A DNA stretch of 40,000 bases from assembly GCA_040384605.1 (NCBI GenBank), contig JAZKIZ010000001.1:1-40000 (forward strand), in the 5' to 3' direction. Numbering within the stretch: position 1 is the stretch's first letter; every line of letters begins with the position of its first letter. The position numbers and the translations under genes were made by a program. The DNA comes from Verrucomicrobiota bacterium (GTDB lineage Bacteria > Verrucomicrobiota > Verrucomicrobiia > Verrucomicrobiales > Akkermansiaceae). Positions 10,846 to 36,288 of the stretch are shown one piece after another. Below the pieces are notes generated by a model that saw nothing but the letters and a program-made list of their open reading frames with translations, had not been told where the DNA came from and ran no database searches.

Positions 10846-10974
10846 AACCGCGAATCGAACGAATCGGGCGAATCATTGATTGGCAGCGACGGGAGCTGAT
10901 TTTGCGATCGCTGTCAGGTTCCCAAGTTGCTATCCTGGGTCTTTCAATTCGCAAGATTCGCCCGATTCGCGGTT
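10846..10974. repeat. Long inverted repeat (20-bp arms, one arm with a 9-nt duplication) enclosing an 80-nt loop.
   Basis: aaccgcgaatcg[aacgaatcg]ggcgaatc at 10846-10874 is the reverse complement of gattcgcccgattcgcggtt at 10955-10974. The loop contains further small palindromes, including gcgatcgc. Confidence 0.7.
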
Positions 10975-23070: not shown

Positions 23071-24600
23071 TCAACGTTTTTTCCGAAGGAACGGCGGCAA
23101 ATCCAGATCCTCGCCTTCAAAGACGTTCGGGCCTTCTCCCTCAAAGCGGCCGCGCGGCGGCGAGTCGAGTGACAGCTCGCTGTCCGGTGAATGGGATTTC
23201 ACGCCGAGCTTCAACTTCTTGGCAGGCGTTGCATTTTCTTCCGCTTGTGCCGTGGAAAATTCTTCGTCCACAGGGCGGAACTGCGGCGAAAAATTTTGCG
23301 TTTCATGGCCTTCCGCCGGTTCGGGAGCAATGGGTGCTGGCTTCCCGGGAGGTTCGGCAAATGGCCGCTCGGCTTCAAACAACGGAAAGTCCGGCGGCTC
23401 CGGTTGCAGTTCTGCAGGGGATGAGCACGTGAAGCTGGCGACGACGGCGGGCGGATGGGGAGTTTCCGGCTCGACGTATTCGGGAGTTCTTTCCGGTTTC
23501 GGCAACGTGGCTTCCGGCTCTACGGGAAATGTGTCGGCAGGTTCCGACGCGGGAGTGGTGAAACCCTGCGATGGTTCGAGCAAAGACGGCACCGTGTGGC
23601 TGATCCCGGCGCGCGGCGCACCGGTCAACGCATCTTCCGGCAGGGCGCTGATGAGCGTGAGCGAAAGGGAATCGCCCATGGATGGATCGACCGCCGCGCC
23701 GAAAAGTATGTGTGCGCTGTCCGGCACATGTTTCTGGAGCTGCTGCATCAGCAGTTCGATTTCATAAAGTGTGAGGTCTTCGCCGCCGGCGAGATGGACG
23801 AGAACGGTGCGGGCCTCGTTGAGCAGCGAGCCTTGATCGAGCAGGGGGCTGGCAAGCGCGTTGCGCAAGGCCTTGGCCGCGCGGTCCTTGCCCGAAGCGA
23901 TCCCGGAGCCAAACAAACAGCGTGATCGGTTGGTCCGCAATGCGCTCATCAGGTCGTCGAGGCCGACGTTGATCAACCCGGGTCGCACAACCAAACGGAT
24001 CACGGCTTTGATCGATTCGCAGATCATTGAGTCCGCGGCGGTGAATGCTTCGTGTACTCCTTGTTTCGCCAAAACCAGTTCGCCCATCCGATTGTTGTCG
24101 AAGGTGACGAGCGCATTGGAAAGAACGGCGAGTTCGTTGAGCGCGGTTTCCGCCTGCTCGCGGCGACGCCTGCCTTCGAAGGCGAAGGGCATGGTCGCAA
24201 ACACCACCACAAACGCGCCCTCCTCGCGGGCAATCCGCGTGACAATCGGCGCGGCTCCGGAGCCGGTTCCACCGCCAAGGCCAGTGCAGATGAAAATAAT
24301 GCGCCTGCCTTTCACCGCTTCCCGGATCGCATCCTCGGCTTCGAGCACGGCCTTGTGACCGAGGTCGGGATCGCCGCCGGTGCCGAGGCCCTTGGTAAGG
24401 TTTGCGCCAAGCTGGATTCTGCTGCGGGTGACGCTGGAATCGAGCGTGCGGACGTCGGTGTTGAGAGCCAGCAGCTCCGCGCCTTCGATGCCGTCGAAGG
24501 TGATGCGTTCGAGCATGTTCGAACCGGCGCCGCCGAGACCAATGATTTTGACGGAAGATGGATTCAACGGCTCGCTGGCGGTGGTGGAATAAGTGATCAT
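23071..24600 (-). CDS. ftsZ: Cell division protein FtsZ with a long Pro/Glu-rich linker.
   Basis: KIIGLGGAGSNM, the tubulin signature GLGGGTGSGAAP, and the C-terminal peptide DLDLPPFLRKKR. Start at MITYST (cat at 24598-24600). Confidence 0.93.
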   Translation of the reverse strand: MITYSTTASEPLNPSSVKIIGLGGAGSNMLERITFDGIEGAELLALNTDVRTLDSSVTRSRIQLGANLTKGLGTGGDPDLGHKAVLEAEDAIREAVKGRRIIFICTGLGGGTGSGAAPIVTRIAREEGAFVVVFATMPFAFEGRRRREQAETALNELAVLSNALVTFDNNRMGELVLAKQGVHEAFTAADSMICESIKAVIRLVVRPGLINVGLDDLMSALRTNRSRCLFGSGIASGKDRAAKALRNALASPLLDQGSLLNEARTVLVHLAGGEDLTLYEIELLMQQLQKHVPDSAHILFGAAVDPSMGDSLSLTLISALPEDALTGAPRAGISHTVPSLLEPSQGFTTPASEPADTFPVEPEATLPKPERTPEYVEPETPHPPAVVASFTCSSPAELQPEPPDFPLFEAERPFAEPPGKPAPIAPEPAEGHETQNFSPQFRPVDEEFSTAQAEENATPAKKLKLGVKSHSPDSELSLDSPPRGRFEGEGPNVFEGEDLDLPPFLRKKR

Positions 24601-24616
24601 GGAATGGGGAAGAAGA

Positions 24617-24661
24617 TGAACATCGAACGTCGGACATTGAACATCGAATGTTCGACGTTCG
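24617..24661. repeat. Left inverted-repeat arm flanking the four-helix-bundle gene. It is also self-complementary.
   Basis: tgaacatcgaacgtcggacattgaacatcgaatgttcgacgttcg contains cgaacgtcg...cgacgttcg. It matches the reverse complement of 25038-25076 across the segments gaacatcgaacg and aacatcgaat. Confidence 0.7.
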
Positions 24662-24665
24662 TTAT

Positions 24666-25037
24666 CTATTTGCGGCGTTTTTCCGCGGTTGAAATGCTGG
24701 TGACGAAGATGCGGATCAGTTGGTCGGTTTCGTCGAGAATGGAACTGAGTTTCTGGTCGGGAAGAATGGCGGAGCGGACGATAAGTTTCAACCATCGCTC
24801 GGATTCGCGCAGTTCTTTGAGAGCCAAGCGCATTTTATGAATGAAGTCCGCGGGAGACTCGGCCGCCTGAGCTTCCCCGTGATGGGATAGAGGTGCGGTC
24901 CCTGAACGGAGGAGTTGGTTGCCAATGTGACGCGATGCGTAGTCGATGCCGAGTGAGCGGGTTAACGCGATGATTCGCGCTCCGTAGGCGAGCAAACGCT
25001 CCTCCAAATCATAAGCCGCTTTCGATTCTTGATTCAC
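24666..25037 (-). CDS. Four-helix-bundle protein (23S rRNA intervening-sequence protein / Avd-like family).
   Basis: YDLEERLLAYGARIIALTRSL...HIGNQLLRSGTAP...EAQAAESPADFIHKMRLALKELRESERWLKLI is the family signature. GTG start at 25035-25037. Confidence 0.85.
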   Translation of the reverse strand: MNQESKAAYDLEERLLAYGARIIALTRSLGIDYASRHIGNQLLRSGTAPLSHHGEAQAAESPADFIHKMRLALKELRESERWLKLIVRSAILPDQKLSSILDETDQLIRIFVTSISTAEKRRK

Positions 25038-25076
25038 TTCGATATTCGATGTTGGGCGTTCGATGTTCGACGTCCG
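25038..25076. repeat. Right inverted-repeat arm flanking the four-helix-bundle gene.
   Basis: ttcgatattcgatgttgggcgttcgatgttcgacgtccg. Its reverse complement, cggacgtcgaacatcgaacgcccaacatcgaatatcgaa, aligns with the left arm. Confidence 0.7.
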
Positions 25077-26291
25077 TCACTTTCCGAACGGCCAGAAGAG
25101 CGAAAGCAGTTTCCGAATGCAGCCGGAAGGTGCGGCCCGCTCCGACTCGACGAGCTGCGCGTAGCGGATCAGGCCGATCGCGGTCGCGAAGCGCGGATCG
25201 CGGAAGGTCGCTTGTTCACCGGCGAGTTCGGATGCTTCCGGCCGATAAATGTCGCGACCGAAAACCTGGAATGCGAGTTCGGAAATTCCCTTCATCAGGC
25301 TGGTGCCGCCGGTGAGATAAACTCCCGCGCCAATCTGCGCAACCGCGCCTTTCGGCAAGCGACCAAGGACCAGCCGAAAGGTTTCATCCAACCGCTGGTT
25401 GATGATTTCATTGAGCGTGGAGCGGGAAATTTCCACCTCGGCGAACCCACGCTCGTCGATGAGCCGCGCGGTGCCGACGGATTTCGCCGGGTCGCCGGAG
25501 GCGTCGCCCTCGCGGATCTTGAGCAGCTCGGCTTGGGAGAACTGGAGGCCGGTGACGAGGTGAATGTCATTGGTGATGTGATCGCCGCCCACGGGAATGC
25601 AACCGGTGGCAGTGATGATGCCGTCGAGATAAAGCGCGTAATCCGTGGTGCCGCCACCGATGTCGATGACCAGAGCGCCGCGCTGGCGTTGCTCGCGATC
25701 CAGCGCCATCTGCGCGGTGGCGATCGGCGAAAAAACGACATCGTCCATTTCCAGCGGAATTTCGCGGACCAGTTTGATGCTATTCTGGATGCGCGTGCCG
25801 ATGCCATGCACGACGTGGAATCGTGCTTCGACCGTTTTCCCGTACAGTCCGGCTGGCGAGGCGGTGTAGTCCATTCCATCAAGACAGTAGTTGCGGATGA
25901 TCGGGTGCAGGTAAACGTGATCGGCGGGGATGGGTACTTCGCGCGCGATCGTCATTGCTTCCTCAATGTGCTCGGGGCGCACGACGGGTTCGCCGTCCGG
26001 CAGGCGGAAGGTTCCGGCGTGATTCACTCCCTGGATGTGCGCCCCGGTGATGGCGAGAAACACGGAACCGATCTCGACATCGCTTGCGTCCTCGGCCTTG
26101 GCGAGCGCGTCCTTCAGGCAGGCGCGGGCAAGGGCGAAATCCATGATTTCACCACGGCGCACGCCGGCGCTTTTTGTTTCGCCAATGCCGAGAATCTTGA
26201 CGGCGCTATCCGCCCTGACCTCGCCCACGACCAGGCAGGTTTTGCTGGTTCCGATTTCGAGGCCGACGTGGATCTTGGTGCGGCGGGACAT
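25077..26291 (-). CDS. ftsA: Cell division protein FtsA.
   Basis: Actin-fold motifs: HVGLEIGTSKTCLVVGE, ALVIDIGGGTTDYALY, VYLTGGTSLMKGI. Confidence 0.92.
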   Translation of the reverse strand: MSRRTKIHVGLEIGTSKTCLVVGEVRADSAVKILGIGETKSAGVRRGEIMDFALARACLKDALAKAEDASDVEIGSVFLAITGAHIQGVNHAGTFRLPDGEPVVRPEHIEEAMTIAREVPIPADHVYLHPIIRNYCLDGMDYTASPAGLYGKTVEARFHVVHGIGTRIQNSIKLVREIPLEMDDVVFSPIATAQMALDREQRQRGALVIDIGGGTTDYALYLDGIITATGCIPVGGDHITNDIHLVTGLQFSQAELLKIREGDASGDPAKSVGTARLIDERGFAEVEISRSTLNEIINQRLDETFRLVLGRLPKGAVAQIGAGVYLTGGTSLMKGISELAFQVFGRDIYRPEASELAGEQATFRDPRFATAIGLIRYAQLVESERAAPSGCIRKLLSLFWPFGK

Positions 26292-26309: not shown

Positions 26310-27266
26310 TCAGTTGCGGTTGAGAAGACTGCGGACGTCCTGATCGAAGCGGGAATCCATCGCTTCCGCGGGCGCGACGATGGAGACGGGTTCGGGCGCG
26401 TCCCCGCGCAAGGTATACGGAACGTTGTGTTTGGGAATGAGATTGATGGTCGCAATAACCAGGCCTTTTGCGGCGGCGTGATCACGCGCCGAGCGGAAAC
26501 GGGCGATCTGGGCGTCGTGATCACCGAAGCTGAACGTGGCGGCCGTGCCATCGCGGGTCAGCAACTCCAGCGACCATTCGTTCGCCTGGCGAATCGAATC
26601 GATTTGTGTCGCCGCAACCGGATCGGCGCGGACGGCCGAATCGAGCAAACGAAAGCAACGTTCGATTTCCGCGCCGGTCACAACTTGCCCGGTGGCGCGG
26701 GGTTTCTCGGGTTTCGCGGCAAGCCGCACCACGGGCAGATCCATCGTGGTCCCCAGCATGGTTTCCGAAACGGGAAAGGGGACGCCAGCGGCATCAATCA
26801 CGAAACCACCGGTTTCGCGGATGGTTTCGAAGCCAGCGGCCGGCCAGTGCAACCATGCCTTCGGCATCCGTGGCACGATGCGAACGACGAGTGTGCCGGG
26901 AAGATCACGCGTCACCTCGGCGGACTGCACGCCGGGGAGTTTTTCGAGCGTTTCTTCGGCGCGACGGACGTTGATCTCGAAAATGGTGGGGCGGTCGGCA
27001 AGATTGATGCCTGTCATCTTCGCAAAGCCGATCGCGTCCACCACCGGATTTTCGTTGAGGTCGATCATCACGAGTTCGAAGTCCGGGTTCTTGTAAAGTG
27101 CCTGGCGGATGCCGAGAAGCACGCCCCAGCCGAGCGCCACCGCCAGGGCCGCGAGCACCGCGAGTTTCGAGAGCCGCAGCATCCCGCGCAGAAATCCAAT
27201 CCAGAGAATGCGCGGCGAAGTGACGCGGAGGTGGAGCGTCTTGGAGCGGTTCGGCTTGCGTTGCAT
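26310..27266 (-). CDS. ftsQ: Cell division protein FtsQ (POTRA domain).
   Basis: Single TM helix (LAVLAALAVALGWGVLLGI) followed by a POTRA-like FEINVRRAEETLEKLPGVQSAEVTRDLPGTLVVRIVPR. It sits between ddl and ftsA. Start chosen at MQRKPN. Confidence 0.75.
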   Translation of the reverse strand: MQRKPNRSKTLHLRVTSPRILWIGFLRGMLRLSKLAVLAALAVALGWGVLLGIRQALYKNPDFELVMIDLNENPVVDAIGFAKMTGINLADRPTIFEINVRRAEETLEKLPGVQSAEVTRDLPGTLVVRIVPRMPKAWLHWPAAGFETIRETGGFVIDAAGVPFPVSETMLGTTMDLPVVRLAAKPEKPRATGQVVTGAEIERCFRLLDSAVRADPVAATQIDSIRQANEWSLELLTRDGTAATFSFGDHDAQIARFRSARDHAAAKGLVIATINLIPKHNVPYTLRGDAPEPVSIVAPAEAMDSRFDQDVRSLLNRN

Positions 27267-27280
27267 GGGAGGGCGGAGGT

Positions 27281-28204
27281 TCAGGGTTTGCGCAAAGCGA
27301 GGGAAAGTTCGGCGATTCTCCGGCAAAGCTCGGGGAAGGAAATGCCGGCGGCGGCTGCGGATTTCGGCAGCAGGCTGGTTTCCGTCATGCCGGGAATCGT
27401 GTTTGCCTCAAGGACAAACGGACGGTTCTGTGAATCAAGCAGGACATCGACGCGCGAGTAGATTTCAATGCCGAGCGCACGATGGGCAGCCAGCGCGGCA
27501 TCTTGTACGGCGCGCGTCGTAGCTTCATCAAGGTCCGCCGGGCAAATGTACTGGCTGCCGGCGGAGCCGGAAAGGAAAGGGTATTTGCTGGAGAAATCGT
27601 ATTCACCTTCCGGCGGAATTATGTGGATAACCGGATACGCGACGTCGTCGATGATCGGCACGGTGAGTTCCCAGCCATCGATGAATTCCTCGACCAGGAT
27701 ATCGTTGCCATATCGCGCGGCGTCTTCCATCGCCGCCATCGCATCGTCGGGGTTTTTGACGACGTGGACGCCGACGCTCGAACCCTCGCGCGGGGGTTTG
27801 ACGACAAACGGTGCGGAAAAGGACGGCAGTTTCACGCCGTTGGAAACATCGACGATTTCCGATCGCGGCGTAGGGACTCCGGCAGCGAGGAAAGCTCTCT
27901 TCGCGATGTTTTTGTCGAAGGCGCGGCGGCTGGATTCCATGCCCGCGCCGGTGTAGGGAACGCCGAGATTTTCGAGGATTTGCTGGAGTTTGCCATCCTC
28001 GCCGAAGGTGCCGTGAATGATGTTGAAGGCGAGGCCGGTGTTCTCTGGAAGATTGATTTCCTCGGCCGTCAGATCGACCGCCACCGCGTCAAGGCCAGTG
28101 CTTTGCAGCGCCTTGACCACGGCCTTGCCGGAAGCGAGGGAAACCTCACGCTCGGAGCCGGGTCCGCCCATCAGAACGGCGATTCTTAGGTTTGAGAGAG
28201 ACAT
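27281..28204 (-). CDS. ddl: D-alanine--D-alanine ligase.
   Basis: RIAVLMGGPGSEREVSLASG, FNIIHGTFGEDGKLQ, and ATP-grasp motifs up to EANTIPGMTETSL. Start at MSLSNL (cat at 28202-28204). Confidence 0.92.
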   Translation of the reverse strand: MSLSNLRIAVLMGGPGSEREVSLASGKAVVKALQSTGLDAVAVDLTAEEINLPENTGLAFNIIHGTFGEDGKLQQILENLGVPYTGAGMESSRRAFDKNIAKRAFLAAGVPTPRSEIVDVSNGVKLPSFSAPFVVKPPREGSSVGVHVVKNPDDAMAAMEDAARYGNDILVEEFIDGWELTVPIIDDVAYPVIHIIPPEGEYDFSSKYPFLSGSAGSQYICPADLDEATTRAVQDAALAAHRALGIEIYSRVDVLLDSQNRPFVLEANTIPGMTETSLLPKSAAAAGISFPELCRRIAELSLALRKP

Positions 28205-28390: not shown

Positions 28391-30688
28391 TCAGAACGTG
28401 AATTCGTCTTCGCCGAGGATTTTGATTTCGGTTTCGAGGTCGATGTTGCGTTCGGATTTGGCGGTTTTCTGGATGGAGGAAATGAGGGTGAGGATGTCGC
28501 TGGCGCTGGCACCGCCTTGGTTGACGACGAAATTTCCATGCACATCCGAAACGGCGGCTTTGCCGTTGGCGGAACCTTTGAGACCGAGGCTGTCGATGAG
28601 TTTGCCGGCGGGAATGACGTCGGGATTTTTGAACGTGCAACCTGCGGAAGCGCTGACGGGTTGGGTTGCCTTGCGTTTTTCGCGCGATGCCTCCCAGCGT
28701 TCCTTGATCGCTTCGGGTTTGTCCGCCTTGCCGCGGAAGACGGCTTGGAGCGCAAAGTTGCGGCGCAGCTCGCGGACATCGCGGTAGTTCGCGACGATTT
28801 CCTCGCGCTCGCGGGTGCGGATGACGCCGTCTTCATCAAGGAAGGTGACACGCAGCACGTGGTCGAAGGTCTCGCTGTCCATCGCGCCGGCATTCATGCG
28901 CAGAGCGCCGCCGACATTGCCCGGAATTCCTTCCATCCACTCGAAGCCACCAATTCCGGCGGCACCGGCAGCGCTGGCGAGTTTTTTCAAACGCACCCCC
29001 ACGCCTGCCGTCACTTCGGCGCGCGTGCCGGTTGTGATTTGGGAAAATTGTCCGCCGCTGGGATGGATGACCGCGCCGCGGATGCCGCCATCGCGCACGA
29101 GCAAATTCGAGCCGCGGCCGATGACGCGCACGGGAATCCCGCGCTCGCGGCAGTAACCGACGAGAAATGCGAAGCCGTAAAACGTGTGCGGTTCGAGCCA
29201 GAATTGCGCCGGGCCGCCGACGAGCATCGTGGTGTGCCGCTTCATCGGCTCGTAAAGTTTCCCATCGATTTCGCCCGGCGGCATCAGTGCACGCATTTCC
29301 TCAAGCGTCTTGAGATCCCGCGCGATGCGGGTGCCTGCTTCGTGGACGTTGCCCGCACCGAGGGTGATCAGCAGGTCGCCGGGCTGCAATGCGTTGCCAA
29401 CGGCGTGATGCGCGGTGGTGAGATCGGGCAGGAAAGTTGCGGGCACGTCGCCGTGTTGTGCCATCGCATCGACGATGGTCTGGCCGGAGATCCCCGGAAT
29501 GGGTTGCTCCGAGGCCGGATAGACATCGGAAATGAAAACGAGATCGGCGGCTTGCAGGACTTTGCCGAAATCATCGGCCAGCGCCTGGGTGCGCGTGTAT
29601 CGATGCGGTTGAAAAAGCACGACGATGCGCGCTGGTTTCAGCGAGCGCGCGGTTTGCAGCGTGGCTGCGAGCTCGGATGGATGATGGCCGTAGTCATCGA
29701 CAATGCGGAAGTCCGTGGAGAGATACTTCGTCTCGAAACGACGTTTTGCGCCGGCGAAATTCGCGAGCGCACGGGCGATATGCGGAAACTCCGCGCCACA
29801 GGAATCGGCAAGCGCGATGGCGGCGAGTGCGTTGAGGATGTTGTGGCGGCCGGGAATGCCGAGTTCAATATCGCCGAGCGGCTTGCCGAATTTGGCGACG
29901 GTAAAAGCGGAGGAACCCCGCAGTTCGCGCACATCTTCGGCGGTGAAGTCCGCGTCTTCCCAGCCGTAGGAGCATGCGCCAAAGTGATCCGCGCAAATTT
30001 CCGACGCCACCGGATCCTCGGCGCAATACACCATGGTGCCGTGCGTTTGTTTCGCCAGCGTGGCAAAGACCTCGCGGATGTGATCAAGGTCGCGGTAATA
30101 ATCGAGATGCTCGGCCTCGACATTGAGAACCACGGAATGCTCGGGCCGGTAAAGCGCCAGCGTGCCATCGCTTTCATCGCCCTCGGCAACCATGTGTTCG
30201 CCATCCGACCAATTTGCGTTCGCGCCGAGAATCGGAATCTCCGCGCCGACGTAATGGCTCGGCTTCAGGCCCGCCTCGCGCATGATGTGGGCCGTCATCG
30301 ACGACGTGGTGGTTTTTCCGTGTGTCCCGGCCACGACGATGCCTTTCCGCGTGTGAAGGATCGCGGCGAGACATTCGGCGCGGCGATAGAGCGGAATTCC
30401 CGCGGCGACTGCGGCGGCGTAAGCCGGATTTTCCGGCCGGATGGCGGAGGAAAACACCACCGCGTCCGCGTCATCCACCGCGGCGGCGGTGTGCGGCGAG
30501 GAAAAAACCAAACCGAGTTTCTGCATGCGCTCGGTTTCCGCGGAGGTGACGCGGTCCGAGCCGCTGACTTTGTGGCCCATCCCCATCAACAACAGCGCGA
30601 GTCCGCTCATGCCGGACCCTGCGACGCCAATGAGATGCACGCGCAGCGGCGGGTCGGCTTGTGTGAGGCGCTGGGAAAAATCGGTCAT
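28391..30688 (-). CDS. murC/murB: Bifunctional MurC-MurB fusion: UDP-N-acetylmuramate--L-alanine ligase (N-terminal) fused to UDP-N-acetylenolpyruvoylglucosamine reductase (C-terminal).
   Basis: The N-terminal ~455 aa are MurC (HLIGVAGSGMSGLALLL, GTHGKTTTSSM). The C-terminal ~300 aa are MurB (MLVGGPAQFWLEP, VIGRGSNLLVRDGGIRGAVI, AGCTFKNP). There is a single uninterrupted frame, with the junction near nt 29310. Confidence 0.9.
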   Translation of the reverse strand: MTDFSQRLTQADPPLRVHLIGVAGSGMSGLALLLMGMGHKVSGSDRVTSAETERMQKLGLVFSSPHTAAAVDDADAVVFSSAIRPENPAYAAAVAAGIPLYRRAECLAAILHTRKGIVVAGTHGKTTTSSMTAHIMREAGLKPSHYVGAEIPILGANANWSDGEHMVAEGDESDGTLALYRPEHSVVLNVEAEHLDYYRDLDHIREVFATLAKQTHGTMVYCAEDPVASEICADHFGACSYGWEDADFTAEDVRELRGSSAFTVAKFGKPLGDIELGIPGRHNILNALAAIALADSCGAEFPHIARALANFAGAKRRFETKYLSTDFRIVDDYGHHPSELAATLQTARSLKPARIVVLFQPHRYTRTQALADDFGKVLQAADLVFISDVYPASEQPIPGISGQTIVDAMAQHGDVPATFLPDLTTAHHAVGNALQPGDLLITLGAGNVHEAGTRIARDLKTLEEMRALMPPGEIDGKLYEPMKRHTTMLVGGPAQFWLEPHTFYGFAFLVGYCRERGIPVRVIGRGSNLLVRDGGIRGAVIHPSGGQFSQITTGTRAEVTAGVGVRLKKLASAAGAAGIGGFEWMEGIPGNVGGALRMNAGAMDSETFDHVLRVTFLDEDGVIRTREREEIVANYRDVRELRRNFALQAVFRGKADKPEAIKERWEASREKRKATQPVSASAGCTFKNPDVIPAGKLIDSLGLKGSANGKAAVSDVHGNFVVNQGGASASDILTLISSIQKTAKSERNIDLETEIKILGEDEFTF

Positions 30689-36028: not shown

Positions 36029-36129
36029 CCGTAGCCGGGCCATCCTGGCCCGTATGCCAGCGGTGCGGCACGTTCATGCAAAGCCGCAAAGATAAACAAA
36101 TTGATACCGATTTCCATGAGAAATGGAAC

Positions 36130-36232
36130 CACGGATGAACGCGGATGGACACAGATGGGAGAGGAAGATTGGATGCTGCGGTGGCAAATCCTGTAAATTC
36201 TGAAAAATTCTGAAAAATTCTGTAAATCCTGT
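36130..36232. repeat. Phased short repeats of about 10 bp (GGATG series, then A-tract ttctga/tcctgt series).
   Basis: cggatgaacg cggatggaca cagatgggag, then aaatcctgt aaattctga aaaattctga aaaattctgt aaatcctgt (36186-36232). Confidence 0.65.
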
Positions 36233-36288
36233 CCCAACTTCTCCGAAGTCCGAATGATATTCGATTTTGGTATGAATCGGAATAGATA

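Follow-up and report, generated by a model that had tools for sequence, protein, structure and literature searches.

The stretch of DNA analysed here, called the window throughout, comprises the first 40,000 nucleotides of contig JAZKIZ010000001.1 (assembly GCA_040384605.1), part of a metagenome-assembled genome (MAG) of a Verrucomicrobiota bacterium, and our subject is a small, repeat-framed gene that lies in it between the cell-division genes ftsA and ftsZ. The minus strand carries, in an order that matches the annotation of the source contig, ftsQ (26310–27326), ftsA (25077–26291, 404 amino acids, identified by the Pfam domains FtsA and SHS2_FTSA and by gene order on the contig), the small gene (24666–25037, 123 amino acids, with a GTG start) and ftsZ (23071–24600, 509 amino acids, Pfam domains Tubulin and FtsZ_C). 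The ftsA-ftsZ spacer is 476 nt long and is nearly filled by the small gene, with flanks of 39 nt (25038–25076) and 65 nt (24601–24665). An earlier note on this DNA had assigned the gene to the family of proteins encoded in intervening sequences (IVSs) of 23S rRNA genes, placed it on the strand of its neighbours and described the two flanks as imperfect inverted repeats of each other, and in each of these respects it was borne out. Judging from its relatives, the spacer appears to hold one copy of an old, widespread and apparently undescribed family of cassettes that reside inside bacterial operons.

The encoded protein is a clear member of the 23S-rRNA-IVS or four-helix-bundle (4HB) family, scoring 44.3 bits against PF05635 (cut-off 33.8) and 71.5 bits against TIGR02436 (cut-off 24). 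The AF2 monomer model, with a predicted local distance difference test score (pLDDT) of 91, places helices at residues 11–27, 33–57, 62–89 and 95–122, and a Foldseek search with this model returned BT_0352 (2RLD; template modelling (TM) scores 0.81/0.92) and Xcc0516 (2GSC; TM about 0.8), followed by Avd; the sequence profile also matches 2RLD, with an E-value of 5e-21. The motif GxxRxxxSxxxNxxE has been described for the family (PMC3936711), although it stands outside the curated family definition; in the window protein R44 and E55 are retained, and the Ser and Asn positions are occupied by A48 and H52 (RSGTAPLSHHGE). Residues S51, H52, H53, G54 and E55 are invariant in the Verrucomicrobial clade, where SHHGE replaces S...N..E and two histidines stand where asparagine is usual, which suggests that the clade represents a divergent subfamily. 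Among nine copies from the ftsA|ftsZ site the median pairwise ratio of nonsynonymous to synonymous substitution rates is 0.07, with synonymous sites near saturation, and the 4HB gene is under strong purifying selection. Since selection maintains the protein, it has a function. Neither PHROGs nor PADLOC gave a match, and the protein carries no phage or defence annotation.

On both sides the gene is enclosed by arms built of tandem heptamers, which were delimited by inverted-repeat searches, Tandem Repeats Finder, a duplex model and a count of the repeat units. The 5' arm (25038–25086, minus strand) contains five GAACATC-type heptamers with a core array at 25038–25070, and the last codons and stop of ftsA are situated at its base. 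The 3' arm (24607–24656, core array 24618–24648) is the reverse complement of the 5' arm. A repeat finder reported inverted arms of 48 nt at 24601–24648 and 25038–25085, which are 73% complementary and include an 18-nt core with 89% complementarity, and Tandem Repeats Finder reported period-7 arrays at 24618–24648 (GAACATC, 4.4 copies) and 25038–25070 (TTCGATG, 4.7 copies). Both pairs of shared segments quoted in the earlier note could be located: gaacatcgaacg at 24618–24629 opposite cgttcgatgttc at 25057–25068, and aacatcgaat at 24640–24649 opposite attcgatgtt at 25044–25053. Nine matches to GAACATCGAA with no more than one mismatch occur in the 40-kb window, and six of them lie inside the two cassette flanks. 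The duplex formed by the flanks is 9 standard deviations more stable than those of shuffled sequences. The arrays closely adjoin the genes, the 5' array stopping 3 nt ahead of the GTG start of the 4HB gene and the 3' array 17 nt ahead of the ftsZ ATG, and weak pairing of the 5' arm reaches across the ftsA stop codon. The 3' arm can also fold by itself, as had been noted, through a local inverted repeat (24624–24638 and 24647–24661; 15 nt, 93%) that gives a hairpin with a 15-bp stem and an 8-nt loop at 24624–24661; its distance from the ftsZ start, put at about 15 nt in the earlier note, is 23 nt. This hairpin is specific to the window copy and is missing from the other copies at the ftsA|ftsZ site. 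No sigma-70-like promoter was detected between 24300 and 25500 in a scan limited to sigma-70-type sites, and the one terminator-like match near the arms belongs to the opposite strand, where the local hairpin resembles a terminator. A scan of 24300–25400 against Rfam, with E-values up to 10, yielded no RNA family. The window holds no second copy of the 4HB gene, all other tblastn matches having E-values of 0.001 or higher.

Comparison with 160 related loci places these arms in a much wider context. The set consists of 80 loci obtained through relatives of the 4HB protein (one genome per species; 78 enter the flank counts) and 80 metagenome loci obtained through the core of FtsZ, and most of the loci are metagenome-assembled, so that taxon labels may be imperfect. 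When the other copies of the gene and their flanks were counted, as the earlier note had proposed, complementarity between the flanks exceeded that of every shuffled control at 59 of the 78 homologous genes. A period of 7 is the strongest lag in 58 of the 78 upstream flanks and 64 of the 78 downstream flanks, compared with 6 of 78 control windows, and nearly all relatives share a layout of tandem heptamers upstream of the gene with their reverse complement downstream. The sequence of the unit differs between groups: GAACATC-type arms are found in Verrucomicrobiota as well as in a Planctomycetota MAG (L032) and an Armatimonadetes MAG (L037), AATAAGG-type arms are those of Chitinophagaceae, and Flavisolibacter, Cyclobacteriaceae and a deltaproteobacterial MAG have yet other units. 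Arms of different classes pair with each other at background level (median score 7–9, as against 21–29 for a cassette's own arms). The earlier note had named arms that do not co-vary, or that are not conserved in other copies, as evidence against its proposal; the arms proved to be conserved in dozens of copies and to co-vary. Aligned arm pairs from 26 Verrucomicrobial cassettes give a consensus stem of 27 pairs in which 95.5% of the cells are paired and 11 of the 27 pairs exhibit compensatory changes, with the qualification that the alignment consists of repeats and column homology is approximate. None of 500 shuffles reached any of the five measures, and partners slid by one to three columns pair in 20–47% of the cells. 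Selection for pairing of the arms is clear, and the molecule on which it acts could be the sense RNA, the antisense RNA or the DNA.

The 29 cassettes with GAACATC-type arms have a rather regular construction. Exactly five heptamers are present in the 5' arm of 23 of them and in the 3' arm of 18; in 18 the 5' array ends 2–3 nt before the start of the open reading frame (ORF), and the median distance from the 3' array to the start of the next gene is 10 nt. A typical cassette consists of a 4HB gene between two inverted arms of about 38 nt, usually with five tandem heptamers each. Two loci display rearranged arms. In one (L022:1970–2061) the 5' arm has expanded and now counts ten heptamers, six of them CAACATC units in a row, which is consistent with replication slippage inside the arrays. 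The other (L024:1–900) contains tandem partial duplications of a segment comprising the 3' end of the 4HB gene, the 3' arm and the start of ftsZ, with a degenerate ftsZ start (ATG to ACG) in one of the duplicates, which suggests recombination at the arms or the assembly of mixed alleles.

The cassettes occupy a variety of genomic sites, which are short spacers, mostly with the cassette in sense orientation and flanked by genes of one direction. Among the genome loci the gene adjoins ftsZ only in L002, L005, L007, L024 and L029. A Pfam scan of neighbouring genes placed other copies in the oppD-oppF spacer (of many genera), the thyA-folA spacer and the livM-livG spacer, as well as upstream of ispF and inside metH. 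The sequences of neighbours, taken without a Pfam scan, add a site upstream of alaS, one that separates two ketosynthase genes and one that separates a DUF1553-type from a DUF1501-type gene. At least 42 of 69 cassettes run in the same direction as both neighbours, as judged by a crude test on the longest ORFs. In a neighbour-joining tree of the proteins, which like the FtsA tree discussed below carries no support values, the copies group by insertion site (oppD|oppF, metH, ispF and alaS each), and a single clade unites all full-length, intact copies from ftsA|ftsZ; outside it falls L029, which is divergent, starts with TTG and is situated at a contig edge. Because the proteins group by insertion site, the insertions are old, and inheritance has been mostly vertical. 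Between sites the copies are 72–80% identical, and no near-identical copies were seen, so that recent transposition is not visible in this set. A search of 29 cassettes for target-site duplications found none, the longest flanking direct repeat never exceeding that of shuffled controls; the long direct repeat of L024 is its tandem partial duplication and not a target duplication. The 4HB gene is the sole ORF of the cassette, which encodes no transposase or recombinase.

The copy in metH (L010:2863–7328; L015 is alike) has GAACATC arms and is located at the linker between the homocysteine-binding and the pterin-binding domains. The first of the two resulting ORFs contains only PF02574 and ends in ...REVPVVED*, and the second, with PF00809, PF02607, PF02310 and PF02965, begins with MNSLPRVLRLSG...; a relative that is 81% identical (P0129) has both domains in a single chain. 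The metH protein gene thus appears to have been cut in two, as IVSs fragment 23S rRNA. At several loci the reading frames of neighbouring genes extend into the arms: oppD of L003, L004 and L009 reads into the 5' arm and stops there (...SNIEH*), and in L003, L010, L025, L030 and L041 longest-ORF calls push the starts of downstream genes into the 3' arm (MFDVP..., MLDVPCSMFDVP...). Such read-through is a likely source of annotation errors, with upstream genes running into the 5' arm and gene callers stretching downstream genes into the 3' arm.

That the gene was inserted between ftsA and ftsZ, as the earlier note had it, is supported by the state of the spacer in relatives. Among the 80 FtsZ-core metagenome loci, which are 69–85% identical, 56 contain both ftsA and ftsZ, and in 29 of these 56 the spacer is short (14–68 nt) and free of repeats. 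Five further short spacers (34–58 nt) hold just a few AAATYTC-type heptamers. An intact cassette is present in L092 and L103 and, on truncated contigs, in L091 and L101. Decayed versions were recognized as a frameshifted gene (L114), an internal deletion with both arms kept (L117), a partial cassette (L106) and arms alone (L095), and in L131 the GAACATC arms enclose unrelated content. The same spacer also accommodates different elements. L107 (2986–3500) has a PD-(D/E)XK gene (PDDEXK_3, 130 bits) between inverted arms of another sequence (gcagattaagaggattaag... and its complement), and repeat elements without an ORF are present in L084, L085, L087, L088, L090, L099, L104, L110, L115, L119, L121, L125, L128 and L134; they include long (AAATYTC)n arrays, GTTATNN / NNATAAC hairpins, a nested pair with GGGGTCA-type units and a ACGGATTTT-type inverted element. 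In three loci, spacers of 109, 160 and 266 nt contain no recognizable element. Occupied spacers are scattered among unoccupied ones in the FtsA tree. Taken with the single clade of copies from this site, such a distribution fits an ancient insertion that has since decayed or been lost repeatedly, and fits equally well a succession of losses and renewed invasions from relative to relative. On this comparative evidence, we regard the ftsA-ftsZ spacer as a hot spot for this class of element and not as the seat of a conserved regulator.

The closest parallel among known systems is the IVS in the 23S rRNA gene of Coxiella burnetii, which has a terminal stem of 28 bp, an S23p ORF that is reported to be decaying and three to four tandem GACAGAT units just 5' of the start codon, and which is cut by RNase III at the start of the first repeat (PMC4990558). 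The likeness to RNase III-excised IVSs suggested in the earlier note holds, and it extends to the tandem heptamers at the start of the ORF. The window cassette and the 23S rRNA IVSs of Coxiella and Leptospira are alike in the family of the ORF, its sense orientation and the terminal stem that loops it out, and with Coxiella the cassette also shares heptamers in the 5' arm adjoining the ORF start, although their sequence differs. The hosts are different, in one case the protein-coding ftsA|ftsZ operon and in the other helix 25 or 45 of 23S rRNA; the ORF here is under strong purifying selection, in contrast to the Coxiella ORF with its reported decay; and excision is proven for Coxiella and predicted for the window cassette. 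By location, between ftsA and ftsZ and with no Rfam family around it, the cassette is not itself a 23S rRNA IVS.

Tandem heptamers are also familiar from intergenic regions. Xanthomonas and Nostoc have abundant intergenic arrays, with about 70 convergent pairs per Xanthomonas genome and with function unknown (PMC4692102), and TAACTGA arrays stand just ahead of start codons in Beggiatoaceae, Cyanobacteria and Bacteroidetes (PMC4679880). These repeats (cyanobacterial, Xanthomonas GGGAATC and TAACTGA) resemble the cassette arms in the 7-nt unit, the short spacers that they occupy, the few nucleotides left before the start codon, the variation in length between relatives and, in Xanthomonas, the occurrence of convergent, that is inverted, pairs. 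The unit sequences differ, and most of the described arrays are single and not paired around an ORF; neither paper draws a link to IVS-family genes or RNase III. Genes annotated as 23S_rRNA_IVP, here IVP for short, have been described inside cas operons, for instance between cmr3 and cmr2, and read as CRISPR-Cas-associated (PMC3936711). In those operons too a gene of the same family is wedged between two genes, with no flanking repeats described; the comparison made here suggests that settling in operon spacers is a generic habit. IVP genes are also known from rRNA insertions of CPR (candidate phyla radiation) bacteria (bioRxiv 10.1101/2024.02.27.582315). In the papers that we found, IVS ORFs, heptamer arrays and the IVP genes of cas operons are not connected to one another. 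Nor did we find in the open-access literature a description of such a cassette in a division operon, in line with the earlier note, or of this type of cassette in operons.

Other classes of element were considered as well. Avd, the accessory protein of diversity-generating retroelements and a pentamer that belongs to an RNA-protein complex, shares the four-helix-bundle fold (TM 0.71–0.75) at an identity of only about 12%; the tie is by fold only, and the window gene has ftsA and ftsZ as its immediate neighbours in place of a reverse transcriptase with template and variable repeats, so the locus is not a diversity-generating retroelement. MITEs (miniature transposable elements with inverted repeats) and other small non-autonomous transposable elements share with the cassette terminal inverted repeats, presence or absence at one site and ORF-less derivatives; the cassette differs in its tandem-heptamer arms, its selected non-transposase gene, the clustering of copies by site and the lack of a target-site duplication in the cassettes searched. 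With no such duplication in 29 cassettes, no transposase and no near-identical copies, it does not classify as an element of the insertion-sequence or MITE type. An integron cassette with an attC site was rejected, as repeats are present on both sides of the ORF and the cassettes do not occur in arrays.

We consider it probable, though well short of certain, that the element is an IVS-type cassette co-transcribed with its host operon, the arms of which form an RNase III substrate, and that it persists by virtue of this self-removal. What the cassette is, its insertion into the spacer and the selection on pairing follow directly from the data; transcription of the cassette, cleavage and any effect on ftsZ are steps that we infer. 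As the cassette has no recognizable promoter of its own, lies in sense orientation and abuts its neighbours, beginning right after the ftsA stop, it would be transcribed within the ftsQAZ message. In this transcript the arms would pair as a long stem, looping out the whole ORF, and RNase III would cut the stem, freeing the 4HB mRNA and separating the ftsA and ftsZ messages. Removal at the RNA level would be the way in which the cassette endures in essential operons. This sequence of events appears the likeliest because the Coxiella 23S IVS shares the anatomy. The cassette would then be a resident selfish or commensal element and not a purpose-built regulator of ftsZ, and any shift in the FtsA:FtsZ ratio would be a by-product. 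On the model of Avd, the homologous, pentameric and RNA-binding protein of diversity-generating retroelements, the 4HB protein may, speculatively, bind the five-heptamer arrays.

The earlier note had proposed that the transcript could fold into a long stem around the ORF, and such a stem is possible: it is present in the minimum-energy structure of the 501-nt RNA of the whole region, and a 12-bp helix remains in the centroid. The 501-nt fold as a whole is not significant (z -1.0), and the arms were then analysed by themselves. Corresponding mini-constructs of relatives, in which the arms are joined by a GAAA loop, do form the long stem; their z-scores range from -6 to -13, and their helices run for 12–40 bp without interruption.

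Several observations weigh against the co-transcription and RNase III reading, at least for the window copy. The arm duplex reaches -42.7 kcal/mol with helices of no more than 11 bp, while the arms folded separately reach -27.1 kcal/mol and the 3' flank by itself -18.3 kcal/mol. The minimum-energy fold of the window mini-construct uses local hairpins (z -3.0), among them the one at 24624–24661, a competitor of the long-range stem, and the window stem is the second weakest among eight copies at the ftsA|ftsZ site. The long-range sense stem is thus possible but marginal in this copy, interrupted and near iso-energetic with local folds; it has been eroded, and processing here may be inefficient. 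The types of mismatch do not favour sense RNA either: over 51 loci there are 78 sense G.U as against 108 sense C.A mismatches, and five ftsA|ftsZ copies (L001, L002, L005, L007 and L024), which share ancestry and are not independent, have 6 sense G.U as against 23 C.A/A.C. For this reason the pairing could be selected at the level of DNA or on the other strand. In the ftsA|ftsZ copies the 5' arm is near the consensus and the 3' arm carries G-to-A and T-to-C changes, an asymmetry that could mean that the 5' arm is constrained, that a weaker sense stem is favoured or that the opposite strand is under selection; the excess of C.A may also reflect only a faster drift of the G/U-rich 3' arm than of the 5' arm. 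Finally, purifying selection on the protein would be unexplained by a purely selfish, RNA-excised element.

These same data give some weight to the view that the arms act as DNA, either as terminal inverted repeats or as a strand-specific hairpin of single-stranded DNA or a cruciform, recognized by a trans-acting recombinase or a replication-linked process by which the cassette is moved or maintained, with folding of the RNA being incidental. We think this unlikely, while taking it seriously: the antisense folds of the mini-constructs are equal to or better than the sense folds in stability, and the lean of mismatches towards sense C.A is a lean towards antisense G.U. The presence or absence of the cassette at the same site among relatives, the existence of arms without an ORF, as with MITEs, the association of arms and ORF across phyla and sites, and the tandem partial duplications around the arms of L024 would all suit a DNA element. 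Against this stand the lack of target-site duplications in the 29 cassettes searched and of any transposase or recombinase gene in the cassette, and the clustering of copies by site at a distance at which recent transposition is not visible. Furthermore, the sense bias within operons and the tight abutment to the starts of the ORF and of the next gene point to a role at the transcript level, and the Coxiella IVS of like anatomy is processed as RNA.

The regular number of heptamers raises another, improbable alternative, namely that the arrays are binding sites for a pentamer of the encoded protein, each subunit taking one heptamer as TRAP would, and that binding controls translation of the 4HB and downstream genes or protects or exposes the stem. 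Five units is the mode in both arms, the 2RLD structure contains five chains and Xcc0516 is a homopentameric toroid (PMC4990558). Avd, the structural relative, is located in an RNA-protein complex (8UB7). Strong purifying selection on the protein, the shift of arm sequence class with protein clade and the position of the arrays next to both start codons would agree with such binding. Such binding is a prediction; the ftsA-ftsZ spacer also harbours ORF-less heptamer hairpins with no 4HB gene close by, and the number of units could simply reflect a stem length that suits RNase III.

A dedicated division regulator that sets the FtsA:FtsZ ratio through RNA processing or the local hairpin, the role that the earlier note had entertained in proposing that the element tunes or uncouples ftsZ relative to ftsA, is very unlikely. 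In E. coli, ftsZ transcripts are processed by RNase E within ftsA, which offers a precedent of a kind, and the ftsA|ftsZ copies do form a single clade under purifying selection, with the 3' array and, in the window, the 15-bp hairpin positioned close ahead of the ftsZ start. The hairpin is not shared by the other copies at this site, the same cassette is found in unrelated operons, 29 of the 56 relatives with both genes have the short repeat-free spacer and several more have decayed copies, and the spacer takes other elements such as the PD-(D/E)XK cassette and the ORF-less heptamer hairpins. That the 4HB gene is an ordinary conserved resident with its own promoter, flanked by chance repeats or a simple terminator, is scarcely credible: the gene is conserved and selected and its hairpin looks terminator-like on the opposite strand, but complementary arms with a period of 7 recur and co-vary at dozens of unrelated sites, about half of the relatives have a repeat-free spacer and the sigma-70-type scan found no promoter-like site.

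Going beyond the window, we tentatively suggest, with more doubt than confidence, that 4HB genes and some PD-(D/E)XK genes in frames of inverted tandem repeats are widespread intervening sequences of mRNA that colonize operon spacers and domain linkers, as in metH, are kept because host RNase III removes them, and encode a pentamer that reads the five-heptamer arms for excision, translation or spread. If true, this would unite the IVS ORFs, the heptamer repeats that many phyla have between genes and the IVP genes of cas operons. To our knowledge, in the more than 30 years since their recognition IVS elements have figured only as oddities of rRNA genes, with a conserved ORF that lacks a known function. 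The IVS architecture is now seen in an essential cell-division operon, and the comparison indicates that a large family spread over several phyla follows it as a rule. With defined arms, a defined position, repeat-free relatives and a selected gene, the locus provides handles on the role of IVS proteins, the purpose of heptamer repeats and the tolerance of operons for insertions between co-translated genes. IVP genes in cas or other operons need not be tied functionally to their neighbours, and the cassettes, if processing by RNase III is confirmed, would constitute portable modules of natural origin for splitting polycistronic mRNAs.

Elsewhere in the window, two more repeat structures and one unusual gene were observed. 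An intergenic hairpin without an ORF at 10846–10974 is formed by inverted arrays of 9-nt units (GCGAATCGA / ACGAATCGG / GCGAATC) around an interior of 73 nt, and it folds significantly on either strand (z -5.2 and -6.4). At 36186–36232 an approximately five-copy tandem array (AAATTCTGAA/T) follows CACGGATGAA-like units; this 10-nt array forms no significant hairpin within 36118–36245 (z -1.1 and -1.9). On the minus strand at 28391–30688, a single ORF of 765 amino acids combines MurC-like Mur ligase domains with FAD_binding_4 and MurB_C and represents a fused murC-murB gene of the dcw cluster.

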